Shown one piece after another: positions 1 to 27,203 of a stretch of 64,000 nt of DNA. Made by a program: the position numbers and the translations under genes. Source of the stretch: Mobula hypostoma (taxonomy: Eukaryota). The notes beneath the pieces are model-generated. The model saw nothing but the letters and a program-made list of their open reading frames with translations, searched no databases and had not been told where the DNA came from. Numbering within the stretch: position 1 is the first letter of the stretch; each line of letters opens with the position of its first letter. Where the stretch lies: contig NC_086097.1 of the NCBI RefSeq assembly GCF_963921235.1, forward strand, positions 157,482,001 to 157,546,000, written 5' to 3'.

Positions 1-1971
1 GAAAGGCTGAAGACAGGCAGGGACCTTCCTGCACATTTCAGAGCAATGTCCTACTAACTCAGAAGCCCTAGGCCAAATATTGAAGGAGCAAGATTGTGGC
101 TACAGAACATCAATGAAAGAACTCTTATATTACTGTTATTATTTGCATTAAATTCTATCAGCTTGGGTGTGTCTCCATGACTGCAAACCTTTGACCTTAT
201 TCTCCCTGCTATTGTATTAATGCTCATATTGCAGCTTGGCTTACTCAGCTCTTAGCTGTCAGACTCAAAGCTATCTAGGGTGGTTAGACCACTTCAATCA
301 GGAGGGCAGGGGTAGGACAGGAGACTGGGAGAGATTGGGAGAAAAATGGAAATGGAGGTGCGAGGCAACAGACTAGAGATTAGGTGCAACTGGGAGCAGA
401 CTAGAGGTTGGGAGGACAATAGAAGTTAAGTAGTACAGTAGTACAGCAGGAAGACTGAGCGAGCGCAAAATGTAAAAAAGCCAAGAGAACACCAGAGGAC
501 TAGGGAGGGATAGGTGGAGAGAAGAGGTGGAAAGAAGAACCGTAGGGCTAGAAACTCCATGACTACATACATAGATGTCAACTGTCCACTGGCCTCCATG
601 AACAAGCGGTCCATCATGTTTGTGCAGCACTGACGAGTAAACAGGATAGAAGCAACAGTCCTTTATAAATTTGCCAGACACAGGTAAACACACTTGATTA
701 CTTTACTCACTTTGCAGATGCTGTCTGACCTGCTGGGTGTTTCCAGCGTTTTATGTTTTAATAAGTATATATGATTGACTTAGCCCATTTTGTAAACTCC
801 TTGTTACTGTCTGACTGCAGTCCAACTGTTTTCAAGGCTAAGTTGAGAAATTTAATATAATGGCCAGTAAATAAATATCAGACAGCTTGATGGAAAATGC
901 AGCTAAAACAGACTGCTACAGCAACAGTCTAGCACAGTACAAAAAAAACATGAATGTGGAAGCCAGAAAACAAGCCTCCATTACCAGGGGCACTTGTTAA
1001 TTTTAAACACCACAGTCAATTGTGATAAGAGGGAACCTGATATAATTTACCACCTCCAAGTGGTCTTAAAGAGCAGACAGCAGAAAGCTCATTAACTCTG
1101 CAAATCCTTTCTGCTCTATGAAGGCAGTTCTCGTCCAAAGTACTGATGGATCCAAAATGCCAGTGAGGTAATCCAAGCAGAACCTGAAGACATCTTAAAT
1201 CTTCATGGTCACAAGCGGATCTCCTTTCAATCGATAGATATTAAATTAGTGGCTAATTTAAAGACCATTACCGAAACAAGGACTCTCTGAGTGACACCAA
1301 TATTTTATCAGGATGCTTTAGAAGGTAGCCCAATCAACTCATTCCAAATTTGCAGTACTGTTTTTTTTAAGCTGCAGAACACTGAGATACCTTTCAAACT
1401 GCCTTTCTTCAGGCTGGCTACATTTCTCTGCCAAGAATAGAGTTCCTATTCCAAATAAAATAAACAAATCCGATTTCCCATTTTCACCAAAAAGGTATCT
1501 TTTGTTTTCCAGAAAGTAACAAAACAAATTCTGCAAATCTCACCGTGTGAACAAAGGCATCAATAGAACTTCATTAATATGAGTACATAACATCCCAACT
1601 CTACCTGACACTTAGGGTTAGCTTGTCTGCTTCTGATTGGTTCCTATATAAGCTTTAGCACCAAGGGCTTGGAACTTCATCTTCTCATCCTTAATTCTTA
1701 GCTTACAGGAGAAACTTGAGGGGTAAGTATACATTCATTTGAGGACATAAATAGTGATGGATAAAGTAATAAAACAAAATAGCCAAGAGCAATTTGTGGA
1801 GTCATGAACAAGTGCATAAAGCTGAAAGGTAAAATGTAATTAACTTATCAAACATTTACTAGGCAACTGTGAGCAGGTTTAGGTAATTTATTACAGAAGC
1901 ATTAAGAGTAAAGGACACAAGGAGTAACTATGTTGGCAGAAATTACACCTAGCACAACAGAAGATGACTGT

Positions 1972-2149
1972 AAACAACAGGAATTCTGCAGATGCTGGAA
2001 ATTCAAGCAACACACATAAAAGTTGCTGGTGAACGCAGCAGGCCAGGCAGCATCTCTAGGAAGAGGTGCAGTCGACGTTTTGGGCCGAGACCCTTCGTCA
2101 GGACTAACTGAACGAAGGTCTTGGCCCAAAACGTCGACTGCACCTCTTC
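1972..2149 (-). mobile_element. Short fold-back Penelope-like element terminus with TSD
   Basis: Matches the 3' end of the PLE at 49198-51869. Inverted arms at about 2059-2098 and 2111-2150. Direct repeat cagaagatgactgt at 1958-1971 and 2150-2163. Confidence 0.85.
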
Positions 2150-2239
2150 CAGAAGATGACTGTGTTTGCTGGAAGCCAAACAACTCAGATCCAGAACTAG
2201 GCAGTAGGAGATCCTCAGTTCCTCTGGAGTTGTTACATG

Positions 2240-2940
2240 AAGAACTGCATTGGTGCTGCTTCATACACCCATTCTGGACTCATCAATTTCAGAAACTATG
2301 TCTCGAACTTCCTTCCTGCCAACAAATTTACTTGGTCTATCTCCATTGTTTCGATCTCATCGGCTTCATCTCTGGAGACAGACTATCCATTGTCAACTTT
2401 TACAAACCTACTGACTCTCACAGTTATCTTGACTACATCTCCCCATCTTATCACTTGTAAAAATGCTATTCGTTTCTCACAGTTCCCCTCCACTGCATCT
2501 GTTCTCAGGATGAGGCTTTCCATTCTAGAACATTCTAGATACCCTCTTTTTTCAAAGAACAGTGTTTTCCTTCCACCACCATCAATGCTACTATCACCTG
2601 CATCTACTATATCTGCCCTAATCCCATCCTAGAGTCGCAGAATCATAGAGTACAGCACAGCAACAGGCCCCTAGTCTGTGCCAAACCATTTGAACTGCCT
2701 ACTCCCATCGATCTGTACCATCCTCCCACCATTATACCAGGGATAGAATCCTCATGGTCTTTACATACCATGATTCTCTGCGTTCAGCATATCATTCTCC
2801 ATAAATTCCACCATCTCCAACGGGGTCCTACCAGAAAGCACATCTTTCCCCTCTCCCCTGCCATTTCTTCACTTTCCTATTAGGATTGGTCCCTATCTGA
2901 CTTCCTTGTCCACTCAACCTTCCTCAATGACCATCTTCAA
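2240..2940 (+). mobile_element. Decayed Penelope-like RT fragment
   Basis: FYKPTDSHSYLDY and CKNAIRFSQF resemble the RT at 50115-51149; frameshifted. Confidence 0.8.
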
Positions 2941-3734
2941 AAAAAGTGTAACCAATTCCTCTTCACATTCAATGCTGCAAGCAAAAATCATTCAACATCA
3001 ATTAAACAAGCAGAATATCTCGCTTCTGCACTATTACCTTCCATCAATCTATAATGTTAATTATAAGATTCTCCTTTTATGGATCCCAAGTCATGTTGTT
3101 GTAAGATCCTGCAGACATTTCCAAACTAATTGATATGTACATATAAACAAGAGAAAATCTGCAGACACTGCAAATCCAGAGCAACACACACACAAAGCTG
3201 GAGGAACTCAGCAGGTCAGGCAGCATCCATGGAAATGAATAGACAGTTGATGTTTCGGGACATGTATTCATTCAAAATATTGAAGTCAATCAGAACTTCT
3301 TCCCTGCTAAAGAAGTTTCTTTATGGTCTGAAAAATATTATACTTTATTTAAGTCTTTCACATAAATACATAAATTATTATAAATGCATTTATAATAATG
3401 TGACATCTAACGATTGAGTCACTGGCCTTAATATACATATAATATTATGTTACAGATAATATGATTTGTTTGTGATTTGGTGGCTCCGGGTAAGTTTCAG
3501 CAAAACTGAAGTGTGGTTTCCACGCCAATATTATCCAAGAGAAAAGGCAGAAGTGCAGTATCCAGAGAACAACATACTGTGGACAACGGGGGGGTGGGGG
3601 TGGTGGTAAAGGAATAAAATGCAAAACTGCGTCCAAGTGTATCTCCTCGAATGGTTGGAAATAGACCATGAATGTGATGGGTGCTTATGAAGGCGTTGAA
3701 TATCTGTAGATCAGTGTAAATATTATACTGTACA

Positions 3735-5400
3735 TTAGACCAAACGATAAAGGAGCAGAGCTAGGCCATTTGGTCTGTAGAACTGTTCCACAATTTCATT
3801 ATGGTGGATCCATTTCACTCTAAGCCCCAAACTCCTGTTCGTCCCATAACCCTTCATGGCTTGACTAATCAAGAATCTATCAAACCTTGCCTTAAATATA
3901 CCCAAATATACTACAGCAGCTTTGGCAACAAATTCTACACATTCACCATTCTCTGGGTAAAAAAATTTCTCCTCATCTCCATTTTAAATGGGCGTGCCTC
4001 CATTCTCCAGCTGTGCCCTCTGGTCTTAGACTCTGCCATCACAGGAAACATCCTCTCTATTCAGGCCTTTCACGATTCAATACATTTCAATGAGGTCACC
4101 CCTCATTTTTGTGAATTCCAGTAAGTACAGGCACAGAGCTATCAATCGCTCCTCATATGATAAGCCTTTCAATTCCAGAATCATTTCCATGCACCACCTT
4201 TGAACCTTCTCCAAAGTCAGAACATCGTTTCTTAGAGAAGGGACCCAAAACTGCTCACAATACTCCAAGTGAGGACTCACCAGTGCCCTATAAAGCTTCA
4301 ATATTACATCCTTGTTTTTAATATTACACCATAAGATATAGGAGCAGAATTAAGCGATTTGGCCCATCCAATCTGCTCCACCATTCAATCATGGCTGATC
4401 CTTTTTTTCTCCTTCTCAACTCCATTTCCTGGCCCTCTCCCCATAACCTTTGATGCCATGTCCAATCAAGAACCTATCAATTTCTACCTTAAATACACCC
4501 AATGACCTGGCCTCCACAACTGCACGTAGCAACAAATTTCATAAATTCATCACCCTCTGGCTAAAGAAATTTCGTTACATTTCTGTTTTGAGAGGATACC
4601 CCTCTATCCTGAGGCTGTGCCCTCTTGTCTTAGATGCTCCCATCATGGGACCCTTTCCACATCTACTTTCAACATTTGAAAGGTTTCAATGAAATCCCCC
4701 CTCATCCTTCTAAATTCCAGCAAGGACAGACCCAGGGCCATCAAATATTCCTCGTATGATAACCCTTTCATTCCTGGAATCATCCTTGTGAACCTCCTCA
4801 GGACCCTCTCCAATGCCAGCACATCTCTTCTAAGATGAGGAGCCCAAAAACTGTATACAATATGAAAAGTGAGGCTTCACCAGTGCCTTACAAAGCCTCA
4901 GCATCACATCCCTGCTCTTGTACTCTAGTCCTCTCCAAATTAATGCAAGCATTGCATTTGCCCTTCTCACCACCGATTCAACTTGCAAAGTAACCTTTAG
5001 GGAATCCTGCACAAGGACTCCCGTTCCTTTGCAGCTCCGATTTTTGAATTTTTTCACTGTTTAAAAAATAATCCATGCTTTTTTCTCCTCTACCAAAGTG
5101 CCTGACCATACACTTCCCAACACCGTATTCCATCTGCCACTTATTTGCCCATTCTCCTAATTTGTCTAAATGCCTCAACAATCTCTCCATCCTCCTCTTT
5201 CAGAACCCTGGAGTGTGGACCACCTGGTCCAAGTGATTTATCTATCTTCAGACCTTTCAGTTTCTGAAGCACCTTCTCCCTAGTAATTGCAACTTCACTC
5301 ACTTCTTCCCTCTGACATGCCTGAATGTCCAGCATACTACTAGTTTCTCCCACAATGAAGACCTGATACAGAATACTCATTCAGTTAGTCGGTAATTTCC
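3735..5400 (-). mobile_element. Two adjacent CR1-clade LINE 3' fragments
   Basis: LYRALVSPHLEYCEQFW, RMRGDLIE and LGEWANKWQM motifs; two separate 3' tails near 3740 and 4330. Confidence 0.85.
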
Positions 5401-6075
5401 TTGTCCCCATTATACTATATACATATAGTTTTTTTTGTCCCCTCACTGTATATATATTTGAGCCTCGGTATGGAAAATTCAGAGCACTTAATGAAACACC
5501 TGTACCTGCTATTGAAATGTAACCAGTATTTATTTTCAAGAGACATAGAGCTTATGTATTTCCTCTACATCACTGGGGTTTCATCCTTCAGATGTGATCT
5601 CCATTCTAAGTTGAAGATGACAGCAAAAGAGAGGTGTGGACTGCAGCACTGAAGAAAATAAAATGGCCAGGAAATGTAGGGGTGTAGCTCCAACCCCAAA
5701 CAATGTTACAAGAATGTGATCAGACACCATGAACAATTGTTTCTTTTATATTATCATCAACTAAGCCCCTGTACCGTTCTCTGTAATCCCAGATATAAAT
5801 CATAACATCTGCAACCAAACTTTCTCCTAGATTTTGATCTTTTCCTGAAGTTCCACTGCCACCTCATACACCCACCATCCCATACAAACTATTCCCCCAA
5901 TATACCAACAACCTGTCTGTCAATTAAACAAACTTTCCAATCGAGAGGATAAAATAAAACTTTTCAAGCAATAAGCTCCATTTCCTCCTAGAAATGCCAC
6001 TTAAAGAAACATCCAGACCATTTTGGAATAGAAAGCAATTCCAGGAGTTCATCATTTACAGAAATGCCACCGGTC

Positions 6076-7400
6076 CGACTACAGACCGGTGACATTGACC
6101 TCCCACATCATGAAGACCCTGGAGAGACTTGTTCTGGAGCTGCTCCGGCCTACTGTCAAGCCATACTTAGATCCCCTCCAGTTCGCCCACCAACCCCGAC
6201 GAGGAGTTGAGGATGCCATTGTCTACCTGCTAAACCGTGTCTATGCCCACCTGGACAAGCCAGCGAGCACTGTGAGGGTCATGTTTTTTGTCTTCTCCAG
6301 TGCTTTCAACACCATCTGCCCTGCTCTGTTGGGAGAGAATCTGACAGCGATGTAGGTGGATGCTTTCCTGGTGTCATGGATTCTTGATTACCTGACCGGC
6401 AGACCACAGTGCGTGTGCTTGCAACACTGTGTCCAACAGAATGATCAGCAGCACTGGGGCTCCACAGGGGACTGTCTTGTCTCCCTTTCTCTTCACCATT
6501 TACACCTTGGACTTCAACTACTGCACTGAGTCTTGTCATCTTCAGAAGTTTTCTGAGGACTCTGCCATAGTTGGATGCATCAGCAAGGGAGATGAGGCTG
6601 AGTACAGGGCTACGGTAGGAAACTTTGTCACATGGTGTGAGCAGAATTATCTGCAGCTTAATGTGAAAAAGACTAAGGAGCTGGTGGTAGACCTGAGGAG
6701 AGCTAAGGTAACAGTGACCCCTGTTTCCATCCAGGGGGTCAGTGTGGACATGGTGGAGGATTTCAAATACCTGGGGATACAAATTGACAATAAACTGGAC
6801 TGGTCAAAGAACACTGAGGCTGTCTACAAGAAGGGTCAGAGCCGTCTCTATTTCCTGAGGAGACTGAGGTCCTTTAACATCTGCCGGACGATGCTGAGGA
6901 TGTTCTACGAGTCTGTGGTGGCCAGTGCTATCATGTTTGCTGTTGTGTGCTGGGGCAGCAGGCTGAGGGTGGCAGACACCAACAGAATCAACAACTCATT
7001 CGTAAGGCCGGTGATGTTGTGGGGATGGAACTGGACTCTCTCTTGGTGGTGTCTGAAAAGAGGATGCTGTCTAAGTTGCATGCCATCTTGGTCAATGTCT
7101 CCCATCCACTACATAATGTACTGGTTGGGCACAGGAGTACATTCAGCCAGAGATTCGTTCCACCGAGATGCAACACAGAGTGTTATAGGAAGTCATTCCT
7201 GCCTATGGCCATCAAACTTTGCAACTCCTCCCTTAGAGGGTCAGACATCCTGAGCCAATAGGCTGGTCCTGGACTTATTTCCTGGCATAATTTACATATT
7301 ACTATTTAACTATTTATGGTTTTATTACTATTTATTATTTATGGTGCAACTGTAATGAAAACCAATTTCCCCCGGGGTCAATAAAGTATGACTATAACTA
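6076..7400 (+). mobile_element. Rex1/Babar-clade LINE, 5'-truncated
   Basis: LTSHIMKTLERL, LDPLQFA, SSAFNTI, GAPQGTVLSPFLF, LQLNVKKTKEL; 3' tail aataaagtatgactat; stops and frameshifts. Confidence 0.85.
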
Positions 7401-15921: not shown

Positions 15922-18902
15922 CTGTCAAGTAAAGCAAAGAAACAGCAACTAGTAAACCACTTAACTGAATCAGTAAAATTATTCTTCTAATCACTGCAAC
16001 TCCAGCTTTGTATTTTGGACGTCAATTAATTTACAGAGCATTCCTACTTTAATGGATATTTTATAAATTTAAGAGATGAGAACTAATCACCATGCTCTTT
16101 CGAAATATCAAAACAGAAAAATGCTGAAAATAGCCCTCAGTTCCAAAACCATCTGCGGAAAAATAAACAATTACATTTCATCTGTTCTGATAAATGGCCA
16201 TTGACCTGAAGTATTAACTCAGTTCACTTCCACATTTGCCGAACTACTGAATATTTCCAAGCATTCCTGTTCTTATGCAAAATCGTTGGCACATTACTCA
16301 GTCCTTAAGAGAAAGCACATATCCCAGTTTTAACCTCTAATGGAATCTATTGGGGGGGGGAGAATTAACAGCAGTTCAGACTCTCATTAAGCCCTCCATT
16401 TAGAGGCCTGCTGTCACTTTGCACTCTCCGTGGAAAATACCACAGAGAAAGTCTTCTCTAGGCCACATGAATACACATGACTCCTTGCAATGAGATTATC
16501 TGACTACTTCCCAACACAGGTATTTGTGCAGCCCCTGTTCTAGTCCTATAATAAGTAGGATTTAATCTTCCTTTGTTCCGACTAAAGTCTTCCAGGAAGA
16601 TGGATATCACATTGTGTAATTTCAACCAGAAACATTATTGAGGATCATTTTCAACCCACAGTTCATACTTAAGCCTAATTTTAAGTACCTGCTCTTTGGT
16701 GGGTTCTAATCCACTAGCTGCTCACTGCTTTATTGCCCATAAAAAAGTAAGGCACATGTCCAGCATTGCTAAATTGTCCTGAGTTCTCCCAAGCCACAGC
16801 AATCCCAATTCCCAGCAAGGGTATTAAGGTCAATTTTCATTTTGGCATACATCAATAATATGCCAAGACAGAGCATTAAATCACCTGTACAGGTATTCTG
16901 AAACCTCATTATTTTCACACCTCTGAGAACCAAACCATAAGAATTTTGAGAGAAATATTATTTTGCTTGCAATCTCATATGAACACTTTATTTTAAATTG
17001 ATATTAGCTTTCAACACTTCACAAGAATTGATCAGCTGACATGAGAGACTGATATAGCATTGCACAGCTCTGCAGACTCTGGGGTCCTGACAAGAATTGT
17101 CACATTGTTTGTTAGCACATCAACTAACGCAGTGAAATAGTGGTTTAAATGAAAGTGAACGAGCCAATGCATAAGGACTACATGCATTCAGATCAAAGTC
17201 ATTGTGCAGCTGTGTGATGATAAGAATTTTCTTCAATTAAGCACTGTCTACAGAAATCTCTGTTGTTAGCAGGTGCTGAGTCCAAGGGCACTCAAAATGG
17301 AAGCATCTATCAAAGTCCAGAAACAGTTAGAAATTGTTTATCTGAAGAGTTAGAGTGCTAAAGTGTAAATTAGTTCACTGGAGTTTTAATGGAGTAGTTT
17401 TATGTGTGCTATTGAAAAGGTCTTTGATTATAAACGACTAATGCGAATAAGGAAAATTAAAATGCTACCAGTTCTTATTTTTCCTTAAAATAATTAAATT
17501 TAGTTCAGCAAAACATAATCTATTTTAAATAATGCAGCTTGTAAATCACTTTGAAAACGCGACCACAAGAATCAGCCTATCATCACAGGGAACTGATGGA
17601 GCAGTGCAAGACTCCTGTGGAGAACAGGGAATTTTCACACCTTGTCAGTTTCCATTATCCATTAAGTTACTGGGTGGGAAGGGATGTCCTGATCCACACA
17701 AGTTGCAACCAAGCGCTACCCACCACTCAATACCCTGCAGGCCTCTGAATGCATGTCATTTTGACTAGAGTGTGGTTAAGCTCTATTTCAGATATTTTTT
17801 CACATGTAAGGAATATCCTCAAAGTGACTTGTATACATTACATTTGGGATTACCTTGATAAAACGCCAATATCTAATGAGCTATTAGAATAATCTTAACA
17901 TTTAAAGACAATATTTCTTTGTGATTTCATTGAATCTCTTCTAAATATTTTTTTCTCTGGTCTTTATAAAGGCAAGCTAAAAACTGGAACAAAAAATATT
18001 GTCCATTTGACAAACTACATGTACTCTGATTCTAAGCCTTGACTATGTTTTTTTGTTTAAAGTCTGATGAATATCCTGACCTTTGCTATCCATTTCTTAA
18101 TGTTGATAATCAAAGAGGAGACACTGTTTCAGCAAAATCTCGCCATCTCCCAAGACAAGAAGCAATTGAACGCAGTAGGAGTGAGATGGTCATTGGATAC
18201 TAAAGCAGACTAACAAATTGCCTACTATTTACTGTCTTTGGGGCGGGGGGGGTGGGAATCAGCATGTGCATCATCTTTCATTCAGATTTGTTTTTTTTAA
18301 ACTCAATCATTTTGTTTAAAATGCCAAGGTTCAAAAGAAGTCCTTTCTCTAGAAAACAGTACAAATATCAGGAAAAGTTTTTTTTTAATGATATAAAACA
18401 TAGAAATCAAGCTATTTAAATCTGAAATCTGTCTGATAGCGCAGGAGGAAGGAGGTAATTGGAGGAAGTGAAATACAAAATGACTTGCAGAATTGCTACT
18501 GTACATATTTCTACTTTAAACCAGAGGGTCATTTGTCAGCAGGAATGTTACCAGCATCAAGTTAGAAATAAATATTAGAACGTACTAAAATGTTTACTGC
18601 TTAATCCTGGCAAATACCTTAATAAATTGGCAATATAATGCTTGAATGAGGCCTTCTGAATGAGACAAAATCGCCCAGTTGGCTTTGAAGCACAGCCAAA
18701 TTAGATTATCATCACAAAATATAGCCACCTCAAGTGGATTTAGCTATTCATATCATGAATCATTGGATACTGGCATAATTGGAGTGAAATGGAGAGAAGA
18801 TTCAGAAATTATAAGATTATATGGTATACTATGAATAAGTTAATTATTCCGTGCACAAGCTGATTATACATTGAGATCCCCCTCCCTCACTCACCTTAAA
18901 AC

Positions 18903-21900
18903 TGCTTGTTACTTGTTACATACACCTGTCAGGGTGCATTCTGCAGATACCTTATAAGGTAACCGTAGCCTTCAGCCAGGAGCAGATGTCATCAGGTGGT
19001 TCCCAAACTTCACAGAGAGTTTCGACCATTAACCATGACACTCTCCAGTTGGTGGGCCAGCAGTGGTGGCCAAATTACTGCCCATCTGCTCCTGGCTTCC
19101 AGCTTCCCTCCTCTCGCCTACTCCAAATCCAACAAGAGGCTCGTTCTGCCTTTTCCCCCATCCTACGAGCTGCTTGTTTTTTCCTTTCATCCAGGCCCAG
19201 AGCTGACAACAATGCTGATTTGGGTGGGAAACCTCTGCAGCCGATCTCCACAGGGAACAACCATGCCTGCAATCACTTGTCTTTGCACTCCTGCACTAAA
19301 GGCTGGTACTTCAAGGCCTTTCTCTCGTGGGCCTCTTCCCATTCCTTCTCCCACACAGTACAATGTCCGGGTGTAGGATTGTGTGCACCACATCCAGGAA
19401 CTGCAGCCTCCTTTCCCACATTGACCTTCATCTCCCAGGACCTGGCCGTTCGCAGCAGATTGGGCTTCGATTGTTTGGTTACGAAAGGCCTGGCTCCCTC
19501 TTTGATGAAGGTGATGGCCTTCCTCAAATCTGTGCCAGCCATCCTCTTCTTGTATCTCTCGAGTGTCAGCAAGAGCCAGAAGCACTTTATCATGGCGCCA
19601 CCTATACCGTCCTTGAGTTAGAGCTGTTCTACACCCGGACAGTATATGAGCCAGTGTCCCCTTTTGACCACAGAGCTTACAGTTCGGGTCCTCTCTCATC
19701 CCCTATGTGTACAGATGTAATGGGGAAGGAAAGGTGTCATACATGGATTGCAAGAGGAAGGAAATACAAAGGGCTCCAGTCTCCATAACTGCCCATGAGA
19801 TCTTGCGCTTGGGCAGATCCCATTTTGTCCAGGCACCCTGGGACCCTTGTTCCACTGCCTTTGACATCCGCTTCTCTTCCTCATGGATCCGTACTTCTGC
19901 CTGTACCATGTCTTGCCTGTTCCTTATGCTTGCGTTTCCCCATTGCTGGAAGTAAACTGAGCCGAGGCCTTGTCGCCCGACGCAGGGGTTGCCAATGATA
20001 TCTCGCAGCTTCAGAGAACACACTGCCTCCTCCACAGCTGCGTTGGCTGCCCACTTGCGCCCAGATCTGGTTGTAACGCCTGCTTGCTTTACCAAGACGT
20101 CATTGAAATCTCTCAAGCTTAATAAGGCTCTGCATTTTGCAACCTTGAATTCCTCCACAACAGATGACAGGGGTAGCTGCAGTTGCTCAGAACGAATGTA
20201 GAGGCCCACTGAAGAGAAGCTCGGGGGAACTCCCAACCATCTTCGCGGGTGCTTGTTGGTTTTTCTCTCGATGCCCTCTACGGCAGTCATGGGGAACTCA
20301 TAAAGTGTGAAGAGCCAGAGAAGCCTGGGCAGAAGGCCGTATTGGTACAACCAGGTCTTGAATTTACCAGGAAGTCCGGGTTTGTCGATCTTCTTCAACC
20401 ATTCGTCTGTCTGCTTCATAGCATTAGCCCCATCTGTCAGTGACACACTAAACCACTTCCCCAAGCATTTTATCGGGTTATCTTCGATGGAAGGGATGAC
20501 CTCACCCTGAACTTGGAGGCTAAACTTGCTAATAACTTTGCCCTTTCTGATCACCATACACCTGGACTTCTTGGCTTTGAAGGACATCCTCACCCAAGTG
20601 GCTTCATTGTCCAGGGTTTCCAATACCCATCTTGCTTGGACATGTGATACAGTTGTTACAGTGATATCATCCATGAACCCTCGTAGAGACGACTGTACAA
20701 AGCCCGACTCCAGCGTCAGGCCGTGGGTTACATTTTCTGCTGCTGATATTAGGAGGTTCATTCCCATAGTAAATAGGGTGGGAGAGATGGTGCACCCTGT
20801 TGGAATCCCCTTCTGGAGGTCCTGCCAACTAGTTGCGAAATAGGCTGATGTAAATCTGAGTTTGAATCCTCCCAAGTAGCTAGTGATCATGTCTCGAATA
20901 GCCACTGGGATGTAGTACTGGTCAAGTCCTTCTAGGATGAGGTCATGTGGAATAGACCCGTAGGCATTCGCGAGGTCTAACGAGACAACTGTTAGGTTGC
21001 CTTTTTTCTGCTTGACCTCACGGATCAAATGGCTAATCATTGAGGTGTGTTCCAGACACCCCGAAAAGCCTGGAATACTGCCTTTCTGGATGGATGTGTT
21101 GATATAGTAGTTCTGCATCATGTAAGAACTCAGCCTTCTTGCAAGCGAGCACAGAAAAGAAAATCTTACATTCCACATCCAGGAGAGAAATTGTCCTAAA
21201 CTGGGCAATTGTGGAAGAATCCTCTTCCTTTGGAATAAAGCATCCCTCTGCCAATTTCCAACTTGACGGAATAGTACCTTTGGCCCAGATCCTTCTCATG
21301 ACCTTCCACAGCCTCTGAAGAAGTTTTGGGCATTTCTTTCCACCTTACCAGGTATGCCGCTTGGGCCTGGGGCAGCTGATGCTTTAGCTTTCCGGATGAT
21401 GTCCTGGATTTCCTATCATGTAGGCTCCTTCACATTCTGCTCAATTGATGGTTTCTCCAGTCTCCGCACAGCCCGATTGGTCCCTAGTCCCTGACCCCTC
21501 CGTGGGTCACTGTGCGCCTCCCGCAGGAGCTCCTCTACCTCTGGCTTCGAGCTGGATAGTATACCAGATTTTTGTTGGCCGAGGAGAGTCCTGGTGAAGC
21601 TGAATGGATCTCTCACAAACTGCGCTCGCCTCTTCTCTTTCTTCCTTCTTTGCCGTTGTAGATGTTCCGCCCTCCGGAGTTTGCACAGCTTTTCCCGCAG
21701 CATACTGGTTAAGTCCTTGATACCTTCTTTTTCAGCCGGTGAGCTGGTTTTAAACCTTTTGTTGAGCGTCTTTAATTCACCTCTCAAGCGACGAACCTCT
21801 TAGTTTCCCTCCTACTTAGTTGCTGCGGTAACTCGGGTTGGTTCTCCGCTCCATTGGGCAAAATTGTTCCTTGGCTAGATTGTACGCTATGACTGTCAGT

Positions 21901-22655
21901 GAGTCGATCTTTCTGTGCACTGGACCTGCTAAGGCAACTTCCAGGATGCCATCTAGATCATCATCCAACTGCATCCAGGTGATGTTGTCTGATGATCTAG
22001 GCCATTTGATCCTGTCTTTCCTTGACGAATGGATTGGGGTAGCAGAAGAGGAACTCACTTGATCTGTTGTTTGGTGCTGAGGTGACAAGTGCGGAGAGAT
22101 CTTCAGCTCTGTGGGGTGCTTCCCGGCTCGAATTCTCCTTCGTCTCACCGGACGCCAAGTCCGTGCACTGCACTTGGGTCACCATTGATCCACATCTAGA
22201 CCAGCTCTGATGTATCTTGAGCCCTCTGTTTTTGCAGACTTTCCCGCAATGACACCTTACCGTGAATTCCTCTCCGGTCAGTGTTGTTTGCTTTAGCTTC
22301 CTCGTAGTTGTGTTTCCTGTCCTGGCCGTTGCCGGCATGACCGTCCTGTTGAGTCTCTCATCCTCCCCCCGTCTCGGGAGACTCTGGGGGTATTGCTCTT
22401 CATGTTCAATCATAGCTTGAGTGGGGCCCTCTTGCGAGTGCTGCCCACAAGGTTGCTAGCCTTGTGAGCCTGTGCCAGTCTTTCCTGGAGGTCAGCTGTC
22501 TCTCCAGCGTCACCAACTTCCTCGGTTGTCATCCAGTCTTTTCTGGAAGCCACTGGTACAAACCAGAGATTACTTGTTATATACACCTGTTAGGGTGCAT
22601 TCTCCAGATACCATATAAGGTAACCGTAGCCTTCAGCCAGGAGCAGACGTCATCA
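18903..22655 (-). mobile_element. HERO-like non-LTR retrotransposon (RT + restriction-like endonuclease), near full length and frameshifted
   Basis: N-terminal zinc finger CHCGKVCKNRGLKIHQ. RT motifs LDLANAYGSIPH, GIPTGCTISP, FMDD. C-terminal CKLC...HILSGC knuckle, RWRHDKVL, and AHERKALKY (endonuclease partly deleted). 85-bp direct repeats at 18910-18994 and 22571-22655. Confidence 0.85.
18983..19044 (-). ncRNA. Putative hammerhead ribozyme with non-canonical strand order in the HERO 3' UTR
   Basis: Minus strand reads AGAGUGU-C-AUGGUU-AAUGGUC-GAAACUCUCU-12 nt-AACCAC-CUGAUGA. Stem III pairs 6/7, stem I pairs 5/6, GUC triplet present, stem II weak. Confidence 0.5.
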
Positions 22656-22722
22656 ATCTCAAAAGTCTCAAAAAAATTGCAACACTGACCAATTTGAATA
22701 ACCTCTTTTGAGAAACACTATA

Positions 22723-24284
22723 CAGTGCCTTGAAAAAGTATTCAGCCCCCAACCCTTTGAGTATTACAACCAGGGATTTGAATCAATTGAACTGAGCATT
22801 TGTATTTGTGAATCACATGCTCCTCTTTTTCACAGTAGTGTCCAAAAGCAGGGAAAACTGTAAAGCACAAAAACTTAAAAATTCAAAAACTGAAATGTCA
22901 GCAGTTCAAAGTATTCATGCTCAGCAGTTGGTTGAACAACCTCTCACAGCTATTACTGTTAGCAGTCTTTTTGGATAAGTCTCTATTAGCTTTGCACAAT
23001 ATGATGGAGCAAGATTTGCCCAATCCTTCCTGCAAAATTGCTCAAGCTGTGTCAGGTCAGTTGAGGAGTGGCGGTGGACAGAAATCTTGAGGTCTTGCCA
23101 GATATGTTCGATTAGGCTAAGTTCTGGACTCTGACTGGGCCACTCAAGGACATCAATTTTCTTCATATGAAGCCACTCCATGCTTGCTCCGACAGTGTGC
23201 TTTGAGTGCGTCCTGCAGAAGATGAACTTCCTCCCCAGTTTAAATTTTCTGGCAGAGCTAGCAGATTTTTATCCAGAATCTTTCTGTATTCAACAGGACT
23301 CATCTTCCTATCAATCCCAACCAAATTTCCAGTTACTGCTGCAGAAAATCATCCCCAGAGTATGATGCTACCTTCACCATACTTTACAGTAGGGATGGTG
23401 TTACCTGGCTGATGCGCAGTATTAGATTTACGTCACACAGACCACTCAGTGTTGAGGCCAAGAAGTCCCGCTTTAGCTCATCTGGCCACAAGACCTTCTT
23501 CCACATCTTACAGTATCTTAAGTGATATTTTGCAAAGTCCTTATGAGAAAGGATATGATTTTTTTTTAAAAAAGACAGAGCTTCTTCCTTGCCACTCTTC
23601 CTTTTTATGCGTGGTCTTGGAGCTTGAGGAGCTATGAACTTCATTTCCAGTTGCAGCCACTGATTTCTGCAGCTCACTGAGAGTGACTGTTGGTGTCACA
23701 GTAGCTTCTCTTACAAGTGCCATTCTCTTCCAGCTACCAAGTTTAAAGGAGTGGCCTGACCGAGGCAGAGTGGCTATGGTTTCAAGATGGGCTGCACCAA
23801 GCTCTGAGGTATGTTCAATGTCTTTGTAATGGTCTTGTACCCTTCCCCAGATTTGTCCTTCTCTATTATCATTTCCCTAACCTGTCTTGAATGCTCTTCT
23901 GTCTTCACCTTGATTTGATCTGTTGAAAATCTGTTATACTGTCGGACCTTACAAAGAGAGTAAGTACTTAACAGTATTCTTATGAATTCATTGAAAATAG
24001 ATGATCCTCCAATGTTCTACATCAATAAATTGAGTGAGTTGGTAAGGCAGTATACAGTTCTGCACCTGACGAAAATTAGCATCTTAATTCCACCTCACAA
24101 TTTTGGTTCTTAATTTTTAGTAAATTGTTGACATTTTTTGGAATCTTTCTTTTGATTTGAAATGATGCACAATGTTTTGCAGATGAGCTAAAAAAAACCT
24201 ACTTCAATATATTTTAAATTTAGAAAATATACCAAGTAAAATGTGAAAATAGTTGTGTGGGCTGAATACTTTTTCAAGGCACTG
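22723..24284 (-). mobile_element. Tc1/mariner DNA transposon, full length with decayed transposase
   Basis: Perfect 26-bp TIRs cagtgccttgaaaaagtattcagccc, TA on both sides. Fragments WPSQSPELSLIEHIW, WKKVLWPDE and ALVREATVTPTVTLSELQ. Confidence 0.95.
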
Positions 24285-27203
24285 TATTGTCCCCTACCTG
24301 ACTGATGTCTCAATTACTGTGACTGACTTAGCAGAAATATTCATACAATTGATTTTATCTTCCAAAACTTTGGAAATTGGTGGTCATATGTAATCACTAA
24401 CACCAACTCTACAAGGTTGCAGCAGTTCTGTATTATTTTCCCATACAGTTGCTGGATTTTTAGATTTTAAAAATTCTCCACAATAGCACAGCAGATAAAC
24501 ATGCTGTTTTAAGTAATTCCCAGTCATGTAGACCAGTGGATAGGTTGCAATTGACATTCTTATCTTGTGTTAGTTGGTTATATTTGTAGGTATCATCCTT
24601 GGTTCAATAAAACTCTTTGAATCAAATTATGTGTTCAAACACAGAACATAGAAACATAGAAGGCCTACAGCACAATACAGGCCCTTTGGTCACAATGCTG
24701 TGTCAAACATGTACTTACTTTAGAAATTACCTTGGGTTACCCATAGCTCTCTGCTTTTCTAAGCTCCATGTACCTATCCAGGGGTCTCTTAAAAGACCCT
24801 ATCGTATCCGCCTCCACCACCATCACCAGCAGCCCATTCCACACACTCACCACTCTCTGTGTAAAAAACTTACCCCTGACATCTCCTCTGTACTTCCAAG
24901 CACCTTAAAACTGTGCCTGCTGGAAATGCTACACACTGGAAATGCAGCACGGCTGGACACGCTGCCTTTCAGATGAAATTGAAACGAACAACTGCCTACC
25001 CTCTCACTGAGAATATGCATGTTCAAAGAGAAACTGGGATGTTCTCCTGGTGTTCTAGGCAACAGCAATCATTCAAACAACTGAACAATTTAGTTGGTCT
25101 GGTTGAGAGTCGGGGGAGTTGTTATGCTCTGTATTTGCAGTTTACCTAAGAGGTAACAGTGACAAAATGTATTTCAAAGTGGCCTTAAAGCAGTTTGAAC
25201 ATCAGAATATGAAAGATGCCTTCATCGGAAATTCATTCTCCCTTTCAATTAAAAGGCCTCTGCAGAAAAGCACAATTTCAAAAATAATGGTTACAAAATG
25301 GATTGCAAGTTTTCTGGTGATTTTAATAGCCAACCAAAGTGCCAACATTCATCATCTTTGCTTATATCTGTGGAATGACAAATTGGATGGAAAATGGATG
25401 ACCATCAGCATCGTCAGCAGCTTTGCGAGTGAAGAAAATTTGAAATGTGGCACACGAGATTGCAATCCTCAAGGACAAATGGAGCTACAAGCTTGGAGGC
25501 CACTTTGCTGAGAAATCAGTTAAAATTTTGAACAATAAACAAGTTAATGTTGTAGAGTTGATGGGTGGAAATAAAAGTTCAAGCCTGACATTGAGAGTAA
25601 GGAATCACTTTACTTACAGACATGTTTGACCTGCAGGGTCACAAGTGTATAATAACTTGTATTGTGCTGCAGATGGAATAGTATGAGTATGCTGTAAGTG
25701 TTGCAGACAACTTTAATTTCAAAACACTTCTCTGGACACGAAGTACACCATAACAGGATTGGATTATGCTTCCAAAATTCATAATGTCACAGGCAGAGTA
25801 TAATGTTCTGGTTCAGTGACTGCCATATTTAATACTATTGGTCTGGGTTAGATATCTAGGCAAATCAGATAACAAAGTGAGCTCCAGTGATGATAGTTTG
25901 AACAATCAAAGCCCATCATCCTTAATTTTAATTACCTCTCACGGCCCTGGAAATTCATTTACACACTGAAAGTGTTTTGAGGGGTCATTAACTTAATCTG
26001 ATAATTTTATTTTTTTCCATATATGTTCTAGACCAGCTGAATATTCTCAGAATTTTCTGCTTTTTGTTCTAACTTTGAATAACATCAGGATTTTATTTTT
26101 TACAATGTTGAATTCAATTTGCATTGATCCAGTATTTGCAATCAGCAGTTCACTACCTAAACCTACTATTCATCTCATTAACTTGCTCAGATATACCTTC
26201 GTGGTGGTAATCAGCAGTAAGATAATGTCTTGGATACTTTTGGGAAGATGTGGGGGTGTGGAGCGGTGGAGGAGGGCGAGGGATGAGAACAAGACTTTTC
26301 CAAAAACACCTGAAATAAACCTTTGATTGGTGCTTGGTCAGCTGCCAAAATTCTGAATATTTCTGGCATTCAGAAACACTCAAGTACTATTAAAATAATT
26401 AGTAATGTTTTTACAGTTTGCACTATTAAAATTTAAAAAAAATTAATTCAGAAACAACTCTATACTTTTCCCCAATGAAATGATCAGAGTATCTGTCCCT
26501 GCCCAATCGGGTGGTTTGCTCCATTGAATTCCATCCGTGAAAAGTGGCAAAGTTCTGCACTACAAATCTACCTCAATGCTGGACTATGCTGGGCGAAGAT
26601 GAACTGTCACAACCATGGGATTTCTATAAAAATGCATACGTTTTCAAATTGTGAACAATCAGCAAACAATTCCAGTACATAAAACTTTTAAAAATAATTC
26701 TCTCTTTATATAAAAGTATGCAGAAATAAATGTAGCAACTGTTGACAATTTGAAATAAAAATAGAAAACTTTCTTTAACCTTGAGTTTAACTTGTTTGAT
26801 TTTTTGATCTTCATTTTTTTTGGGGGCGGGGGCAGAATAGTCATCTGCTCTCAATTCTAAACTTCTCTCTCCAAATTTATAAATGCACCTTCTCAGAATC
26901 TGGCTGATGGTGAATCTTCACACTGAGAGAGTGATATACTTTTTATAGATCAGGTTTAATTTAAATATGAAAGGAAGTTAAGGATGCCCAGATTAGCTCC
27001 TTACGAGCAAGAGGGGTGGGGACTAGAAATGGAGCACACAAACAAAGCCATTGCTCCAGAGCTAGTCCGGAGGTCTGCCATTATTATCAAATGCACTGTC
27101 CTCCAAAAATGAATTTATGAAGCTAGATTATACTGGATAAGACAAAGGTTAAGGACTAAATACACTGAAAATAGAAAATACTATTCAGAAATCAGGCAAC
27201 ATA

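Follow-up and report, generated by a model that had tools for sequence, protein, structure and literature searches.

The window analysed here is a 64,000-nt stretch of the Mobula hypostoma genome (contig NC_086097.1, positions 157,482,001 to 157,546,000; coordinates below are those of the window). On its reverse strand, at 18905–22655, lies an insertion made of one unit of a HERO-like retrotransposon that lacks long terminal repeats (non-LTR), of the type with a restriction-like endonuclease (RLE), preceded by 85 nt of the element's own 3′ end, with no target-site duplication (TSD) seen. The 5′ copy of these last 85 nt (22571–22655) is joined to a 5′ untranslated region (UTR) of about 150 nt (22423–22570), followed by only one open reading frame (ORF; 19075–22422), broken by frameshifts and stops, which runs from an N-terminal zinc-finger-like motif through a reverse transcriptase (RT) and a CCHC knuckle to an RLE region partly deleted in this copy. 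The 3′ copy of the repeat occupies 18910–18994, and the insertion closes with two copies of a 7-nt unit (18905–18918), the probable start of reverse transcription.

A repeat search returned the terminal direct repeat, already reported in the initial annotation, at 18909–18994 and 22570–22655, with 86 nt, 94% identity and 5 mismatches; the earlier figure of 85 nt omits an A common to both copies. No other direct repeat of the 17–25 kb region comes near it in length, the next one measuring 35 nt at 71%. The repeat begins at U4 of a CUGAUGA motif and so holds most of it, as had been noted before; C3 (18995) and everything upstream are missing from the 5′ copy, which therefore cannot form the ribozyme predicted below. 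A perfect 15-nt complement, also noticed earlier, joins 18974–18988 to 19083–19097, the latter coding the final residues ahead of the stop at 19077–19075. With its one mutated ribozyme and its broken ORF, the window copy is dead.

The longest open piece of the ORF (19703–21295, 530 aa) holds the RT domain (PF00078, E 9.4e-20) and is, among the matches listed, 44–76% identical to relatives in fish, lancelets and bivalves; its top PDB matches are R2 proteins (E 9e-45), followed by L1. The translation further gives a CCHC zinc knuckle (19631–19681) and then a motif that we take to be RHD. A PD...ELT motif, as expected of a C-terminal endonuclease of the PD-(D/E)xK type, is present in copy L167 and in the relative P0002, the matching stretch being deleted in the window copy; the motif labels are presumed here. 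The window ORF is colinear with an intact relative of 1155 aa, and longer relatives of 1,311–1,422 aa (P0051, P0081, P0082) carry an extra domain, PF08719. No relatives were found among viral contigs. The family has a fixed 3′ end and variable 5′ truncation: of 60 3′ ends sampled by their order along the chromosomes (out of 74 matches, 14 being passed over as already sampled), 59 were mapped by BLAST, with lengths of 33–3,227 nt. Judged by its sequence, the element is an RLE non-LTR retrotransposon, and HERO is its likely clade, placed by resemblance; no named HERO reference occurred among the 240 listed protein matches. HERO elements are not known to have target specificity. The insertion flanks of our element are unrelated, hence without a fixed target, and the hosts of its relatives include fish and lancelet. 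HERO has been described as an RLE-bearing clade of long interspersed elements (LINEs) of fish and lancelets (PMC9004415), and shares with our element the RLE, the single ORF and the unrelated insertion flanks.

Terminal repeat and head-to-tail junction

A 17-mer taken within the repeat is matched exactly at 601 places in the 3.48-Gb genome, against 0 for a control, and a first look gave 1,481 candidates for the 3′ end. All 30 aligned 3′ loci end with the repeat sequence, continuous with the ORF end, and then diverge, save 3 in which the 5′ body of the element itself comes next. Short TSDs, too, are missing: 2 of 52 simple insertions share a flank word of at least 7 letters, against 4.4% of mismatched pairs. 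Since this sequence terminates dispersed copies by the hundred, adjoins the ORF end without a break in all 30 aligned loci and differs in length from copy to copy, the reading of the 85 bp as a long TSD or a chance repeat, for which no support was found, is refuted. The initial annotation had taken the repeat for the element's own 3′ end rather than a host TSD, and had expected the redundancy in other copies; both are borne out.

The 3′ terminus meets the 5′ UTR between 22571 and 22570, at a fixed head-to-tail junction (22563–22579) whose 17-mer has 58 exact genome matches (control, 3). In a first sample of 30 loci chosen by the 5′ body, 26 had a 3′ end directly upstream, and the junction stood in the same register in 44 of 51 body-selected copies. 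Distant families showed it in 11 of 37 motif matches, and in such families a motif from the 5′ UTR recurs downstream of the putative ribozyme. One contig, L067, overlaps its own ends; short-read contigs cannot give overlap lengths.

An extra tail unit occurs at 15 of 60 free 3′ ends and at none of 44 junctions, so that the junction must be taken over from the template and does not arise afresh; the head-to-tail template assumed in the initial annotation is needed. The same counts bear on the idea that the overlap is a second insertion, arising either by a preference for the 5′ end of existing copies or by an RT jump at the junction. Many RLE elements are target-specific (PMC4640811), 7 of the 69 copies with measured overlaps end at most 4 nt from the junction, and metagenome contig L061 joins two families, all of which would suit that idea; yet independent starts predict tail expansions in about a quarter of the junctions, and the overlaps have no common sequence upstream. 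The invariant junction essentially refutes this origin, which we regard as scarcely credible. As to L061 itself (88–7300), its two families, with 68% nucleotide identity, stand head to tail across a normal-looking junction, in what is either a real chimeric tandem or a misassembly.

Among the insertions fetched, only L213 carries two junctions. On a reading of the list, each of the 58 exact matches to the junction lies more than 10 kb from any other, and no insertion with two complete units occurred among 91 mapped ten-kb loci. Assembled multi-unit arrays are rare. In element orientation, L213 (343–5670) consists of a 1,679-nt overlap followed by one unit with an internal deletion common to L219, and ends with a normal terminus to which 99 nt of 5′ body are joined. 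Three neighbouring repeats of unit positions 1836–2822 on one contig (L294, L307 and L308, at 97.78 Mb) are apparently a local tandem duplication, and L227 is a copy with an 891-nt overlap caught in an inversion.

A split-core hammerhead-like fold over the stop codon

A metagenome scan gave 78 loci and, drawn from them, 47 ORF ends, 31 of which fitted a strict core pattern; the 16 misses were, by eye, five cut-off contigs, seven degenerate copies, one deleted copy and three without an evident motif. The alignment (n = 25) holds 23 of the 31, the window copy and one further family copy, six near-duplicates and two others being left out. In RNA order, the 5′ part of the predicted fold begins with a strand of helix X in the last ORF codons (19083–19097, pairing with 18974–18988), followed by hairpin H over the stop codon (19059–19082), then, within 19048–19058, the detached 5′ strand of stem II (from G10.1 at 19058 to 19054) and the 5′ strand of helix P (19052–19048). 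The 3′ part comprises block S (19032–19043) with a stem III strand, GUH (here GUC) and a stem I strand; a linker; block G (19015–19028) with the 3′ strand of stem II, C11.1-GAAA and the 3′ strand of stem III; a segment (18989–19007) with the 3′ strand of helix P (19007–19003), a stem I strand (19000–18996) and CUGAnGA (CUGAUGA, 18995–18989); and, inside the 3′ copy of the repeat, the second strand of helix X (18988–18974), which is the 15-nt complement mentioned above. By analogy with known hammerheads, cleavage would fall at 19037|19036, 127 nt from the junction.

The six helices are paired in 92.5% of the cells across 25 sequences from diverged families, against 65.5% when shuffled and 36–43% when slid, and two-sided changes occur in 30 of 37 pairs, figures to be read with the facts that the structure was derived from the same sequences as were scored and that relatedness inflates covariation counts. 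Stems I, II and III show pairing in 95%, 94% and 98% of cells, helix P, which joins stems I and II, in 89.7%, and helix X, which takes the place of the canonical continuation of stem II, in 88.9%. The core letters CUGAnGA, GAAA and NUH are invariant or at least 90% conserved; position H17 is C in 10, U in 11, A in 4 and G in none. The pair G10.1–C11.1 is G-C in 22 of 25 sequences and the A15.1–U16.1 pair is U-A in all 25. A canonical SGC stem II, with CUGAnGA running into it, was tried and rejected (48.8% of its cells pair and 46.7% do so after shuffling, while its first pair forms in 0 of 25 sequences), and an apparent C-C mismatch at 10.1/11.1 disappeared once the detached G10.1 strand was identified. 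Rfam gave no match at E ≤ 1 over 18000–23500, and single-sequence folding of the 3′ end, which cannot represent pseudoknots, was unremarkable (z −1.1).

Like the type-SGC hammerhead HRIMA-1 (PMC10085705), the fold has the order S-G-C, a short linker between stems I and II (3 nt in the Mobula family), an extra helix tying these two stems and the same core letters. Unlike it, the 5′ strand of stem II lies some 60 nt upstream of CUGAnGA, and A9 and G10.1 are bridged by X and H; these two helices presumably stack and present A9 and G10.1 side by side. In all known hammerheads the insertion at the A9–G10.1 step is no more than 1–2 nt (Eckert et al. 2023, PMC10085705). With its block C interrupted, the fold is best described as SGC-like and not as a member of type-SGC as defined. 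SGC ribozymes, in the available part of that report, were not found in the genomes of known organisms, whereas the present motif sits in an animal retrotransposon. We conclude that the fold is conserved and hammerhead-like and that it likely cuts the element RNA.

No hammerhead in HERO or RLE LINEs, nor any in split-core form, was found in the literature searched, which was available in part and consisted mostly of sources outside subscription journals and Repbase notes, and the accessible part of a 2026 ribozyme survey makes no mention of HERO. The split-core variant is well supported as a fold and appears new relative to the literature searched. If it cleaves, animal genomes would contain a hammerhead whose architecture falls beyond the six block permutations regarded as possible and which Rfam does not detect. 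The loop of hairpin H (19066–19075 and its counterparts in relatives) carries a near-palindromic hexamer, conserved in most families, through which two RNAs might form kissing or dimer contacts.

Overlap lengths and the route of copying

Overlap lengths were read in 69 insertions, 50 chosen by the body and 19 by the junction pattern; a segmental duplicate (L164), an interrupted copy whose overlap does pass the cut (L217), the inverted L227, L240, which has no element, L241, which lacks the body, and 18 copies whose truncation falls within the body were left out. The overlaps range from 0 to 2,239 nt: 7 measure at most 4 nt, 23 measure 5–124, 2 measure 126–127, 8 measure 130–195 and 29 measure 196–2,239, the last group having room for two whole ribozymes. 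The 85 nt of the window copy are one draw from this continuous distribution of 5′ truncations. The 5′ ends accumulate around one unit length: in 30 copies that hold unit positions 900–1080, they fall at 450–900 in 3, at 450–89 in 14, no more than 85 nt beyond the junction in 9 and still further out in 4. A separate cluster of truncations at unit positions 148–179 (window 22391–22423), near the start of ORF homology, accounts for 9 of the 18 body-truncated copies and may mark a protein-bound or structured 5′ UTR.

The initial annotation had proposed that cleavage by the upstream ribozyme leaves at most about 127 nt of 3′ sequence on the next unit, so that the longest redundancy should stop at the cleavage site. 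Two of the 69 overlaps and 1 of the 60 first-round 5′ ends do stop at 126–127 nt (the latter at 126 nt), but the count among the overlaps is within chance (about 0.11), and 37 of 69 overlaps, and 27 of 51 in the body-selected copies, pass 129 nt. By the standard that the initial annotation had itself set, a redundancy routinely extending past the GUC site, this version is refuted as a general rule, and we hold it to be very improbable; it could survive as a minor class of templates. The span across the predicted cut has a single length in 105 of 106 cases, from which it follows that a cut template must be rejoined cleanly. The location of the fold, 127 nt inside the 3′ end, is itself a problem: insertions have their ends downstream of it and cross it scarlessly.

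To reconcile these observations we propose, with about an even chance of being right, that the repeat is the leftover of reverse transcription across a fixed tail-to-head junction, likely on a cut-out and probably closed unit RNA. A genomic copy with an overlap of at least about 196 nt would hold two whole ribozymes, and a host read-through transcript of it would be cut at both GUC sites to give an RNA of about 3.72 kb with an intact ORF, the ends of which would be joined without a scar. The RT-RLE protein would then nick DNA and initiate internally, using the 7-nt repeat that lies 127 nt beyond the cut. Most events would truncate early, those nearing a full round would stop mostly within about 300 nt of the junction, and some would run 1–2 kb further past it. 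Copies with long overlaps, for which 29 of 69 qualify by length, would reseed the cycle, and the window copy, which would have stopped 85 nt into the second round, would be a dead end. Internal initiation has been shown for a Penelope element (PMC11167929), and circles made by hammerheads have been reported for retrozymes (10.64898/2026.07.22.740005).

Several points weigh against this proposal. Cleavage, ligation and the circle are predicted steps, and the split core, which breaks the contiguity of the hammerhead, may not cleave. The 5′ ends show no significant pile-up at the cut, either in the overlaps (2 of 69) or in the first round (1 of 60). The 5′ and 3′ repeats of a copy agree at 126 of 161 diagnostic sites (0.59 at random), though a single-molecule ring predicts identity, in a comparison that gene conversion blurs both ways. 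One Penelope element inserts in vitro without need of its hammerhead, at whose site no RNA ends were found, according to the accessible part of PMC11167929. Finally, tandem arrays could be collapsed in the assembly.

Rare variants common to both repeats of one copy number 20 of 210 in 43 copies, more than the 3.6 expected, and in one overlap of 1.9 kb the two repeats match at 22 of 23 diagnostic sites. Exchange between copies is frequent in the family. The four-gamete test is broken in 589 of 703 site pairs, so that the family appears as a patchwork, and at least 10 rare variants, lying in blocks, are shared in 10 of the 19 pairs that lie within 7 Mb of each other and in 0 of the 3,281 remaining pairs. 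Such a pattern suggests strong ectopic gene conversion that depends on distance, or local hopping; the flanks differ in both neighbour pairs compared directly, and gene conversion after insertion is the likely cause of the sharing between neighbours. Exchange after insertion between nearby copies can explain the disagreement between repeats as well as their sharing. Mosaic haplotypes as a product of RT template switching were considered and dropped, since all strongly related pairs are chromosomal neighbours. The neighbours on the same contig, some 0.3–6 Mb apart and sharing 13–34 rare variants, are L146/L158/L246, L152/L153/L230, L159/L172 and L161/L222, and further groups with the same extent of sharing are L166/L250, L167/L228, L210/L211 and L213/L219.

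A route without cutting or ligation would resemble that of Penelope-like elements: an uncut, linear read-through RNA of a partial or full tandem, on which the RT starts internally, from a terminus lying downstream, and crosses the upstream junction, while the ribozyme cuts only sometimes or acts in protein-assisted processing or in the control of translation. It would explain the invariant junction, the clean cut site and overlaps that pass the cut without ligation, it agrees with how the anole Penelope element behaves in vitro (PMC11167929), L213 carries two junctions, and frequent ectopic exchange could rebuild tandems. On this route, however, each daughter's overlap could only be shorter than that of its source, though overlaps of up to 2.2 kb occur; the long ones would have to come from multi-unit sources, whereas the 91 mapped loci held no insertion with two complete units and the 58 exact junction matches no adjacent pair; by eye, 5′ flanks of the transduction type are not shared except in one segmental duplicate; and the strict conservation of the catalytic letters is less well explained. 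We consider this route unlikely, yet the strongest of the rivals.

Alternatively, the RNA could be cut and left unligated, the RT crossing the nick from a unit RNA's 5′ end onto the 3′ end of that RNA or of a different one, while stems I and III of the ribozyme keep both ends in register, or transferring strands via the terminal repeat. Template jumps usually add or lose bases, and scars would be expected, yet 105 of the 106 spans across the cut have one length; moreover, every overlap above 127 nt needs a jump, but first-round lengths do not pile up at that point (1 of 60). The partial disagreement of the 5′ and 3′ repeats and the two head-to-tail families of L061, which may be a misassembly, would fit such jumping, and template jumping has been reported for RTs of non-LTR elements. 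Taken together, a jump across the cut is improbable.

Returning to the closed unit RNA, a wider proposal can be built on it, which we put forward tentatively and with somewhat more doubt than confidence: that a widespread, autonomous clade of R2-like LINEs uses a self-cut and re-closed circular mRNA of 3.7 kb, a hammerhead with its catalytic core split between A9 and G10.1 by an insert of two helices, and internally primed rolling-circle reverse transcription that regenerates a two-ribozyme source in every generation. If the ring exists, a protein-coding LINE would be copied from a retrozyme-like circular template with internal priming, unlike R2 and L1 with their linear RNA primed at the 3′ end; the tandem structure of these elements would thereby be accounted for, and an RT-RLE enzyme able to copy circular RNA into DNA would become available. 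The terminal repeat alone, as a by-product of the route, is less new.

Comparison with known elements

A fish non-LTR element with tandem structure is already known, and so are Penelope elements whose terminal repeats carry a hammerhead. The former was reportedly described by Bouneau et al. 2003, whose title concerns a tandem non-LTR element of Tetraodon; the element is said to be called Zebulon and to have RLE/HERO affinity, and we know of no ribozyme in it. The initial annotation had drawn a parallel with the pseudo-LTR and hammerhead of Penelope-like elements in a different class of retroelements, and the partial tandem and the fold described here sustain it. Penelope-like elements (PMC11167929; PMC4209133) share with ours a single ORF, a partial tandem with terminal repeats and a hammerhead in the repeat, and the internal start of reverse transcription, shown for Penelope (PMC11167929), is likely also in the Mobula element. 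The differences lie in the protein, which has an R2-group RT with CCHC and RLE instead of a telomerase-like RT with GIY-YIG; in the place of the ribozyme, predicted here over the stop codon and 3′ UTR and located in Penelope at the ORF start (PMC11167929); and in the pseudoknotted split-core wiring predicted for our fold. Hence the element works like a Penelope-like element and is not a member of that group.

Retrozymes (10.64898/2026.07.22.740005) have in common with the element two hammerheads one unit apart, giving a unit-length RNA able to circularise. They are non-coding and carry type I or III hammerheads, in contrast to the protein-coding element of 3.7 kb, for which the circle is predicted. 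The element is not a retrozyme, since it encodes an RT-RLE protein. R2 elements with a 5′ ribozyme resembling that of hepatitis delta virus (PMC3774820, PMC3414825) provide the closest solved proteins and a precedent for ribozyme processing of a read-through transcript, but in R2 the ribozyme sets where the insertion has its 5′ end, whereas the 5′ ends of our element do not stop at the predicted cut and it has no fixed target.

Beside the retrotransposon, 61 nt from its 5′ end, the window holds another element (22717–24290) with 35-nt inverted ends (94%) and broken transposase-like frames, presumably Tc1-like by its motif.

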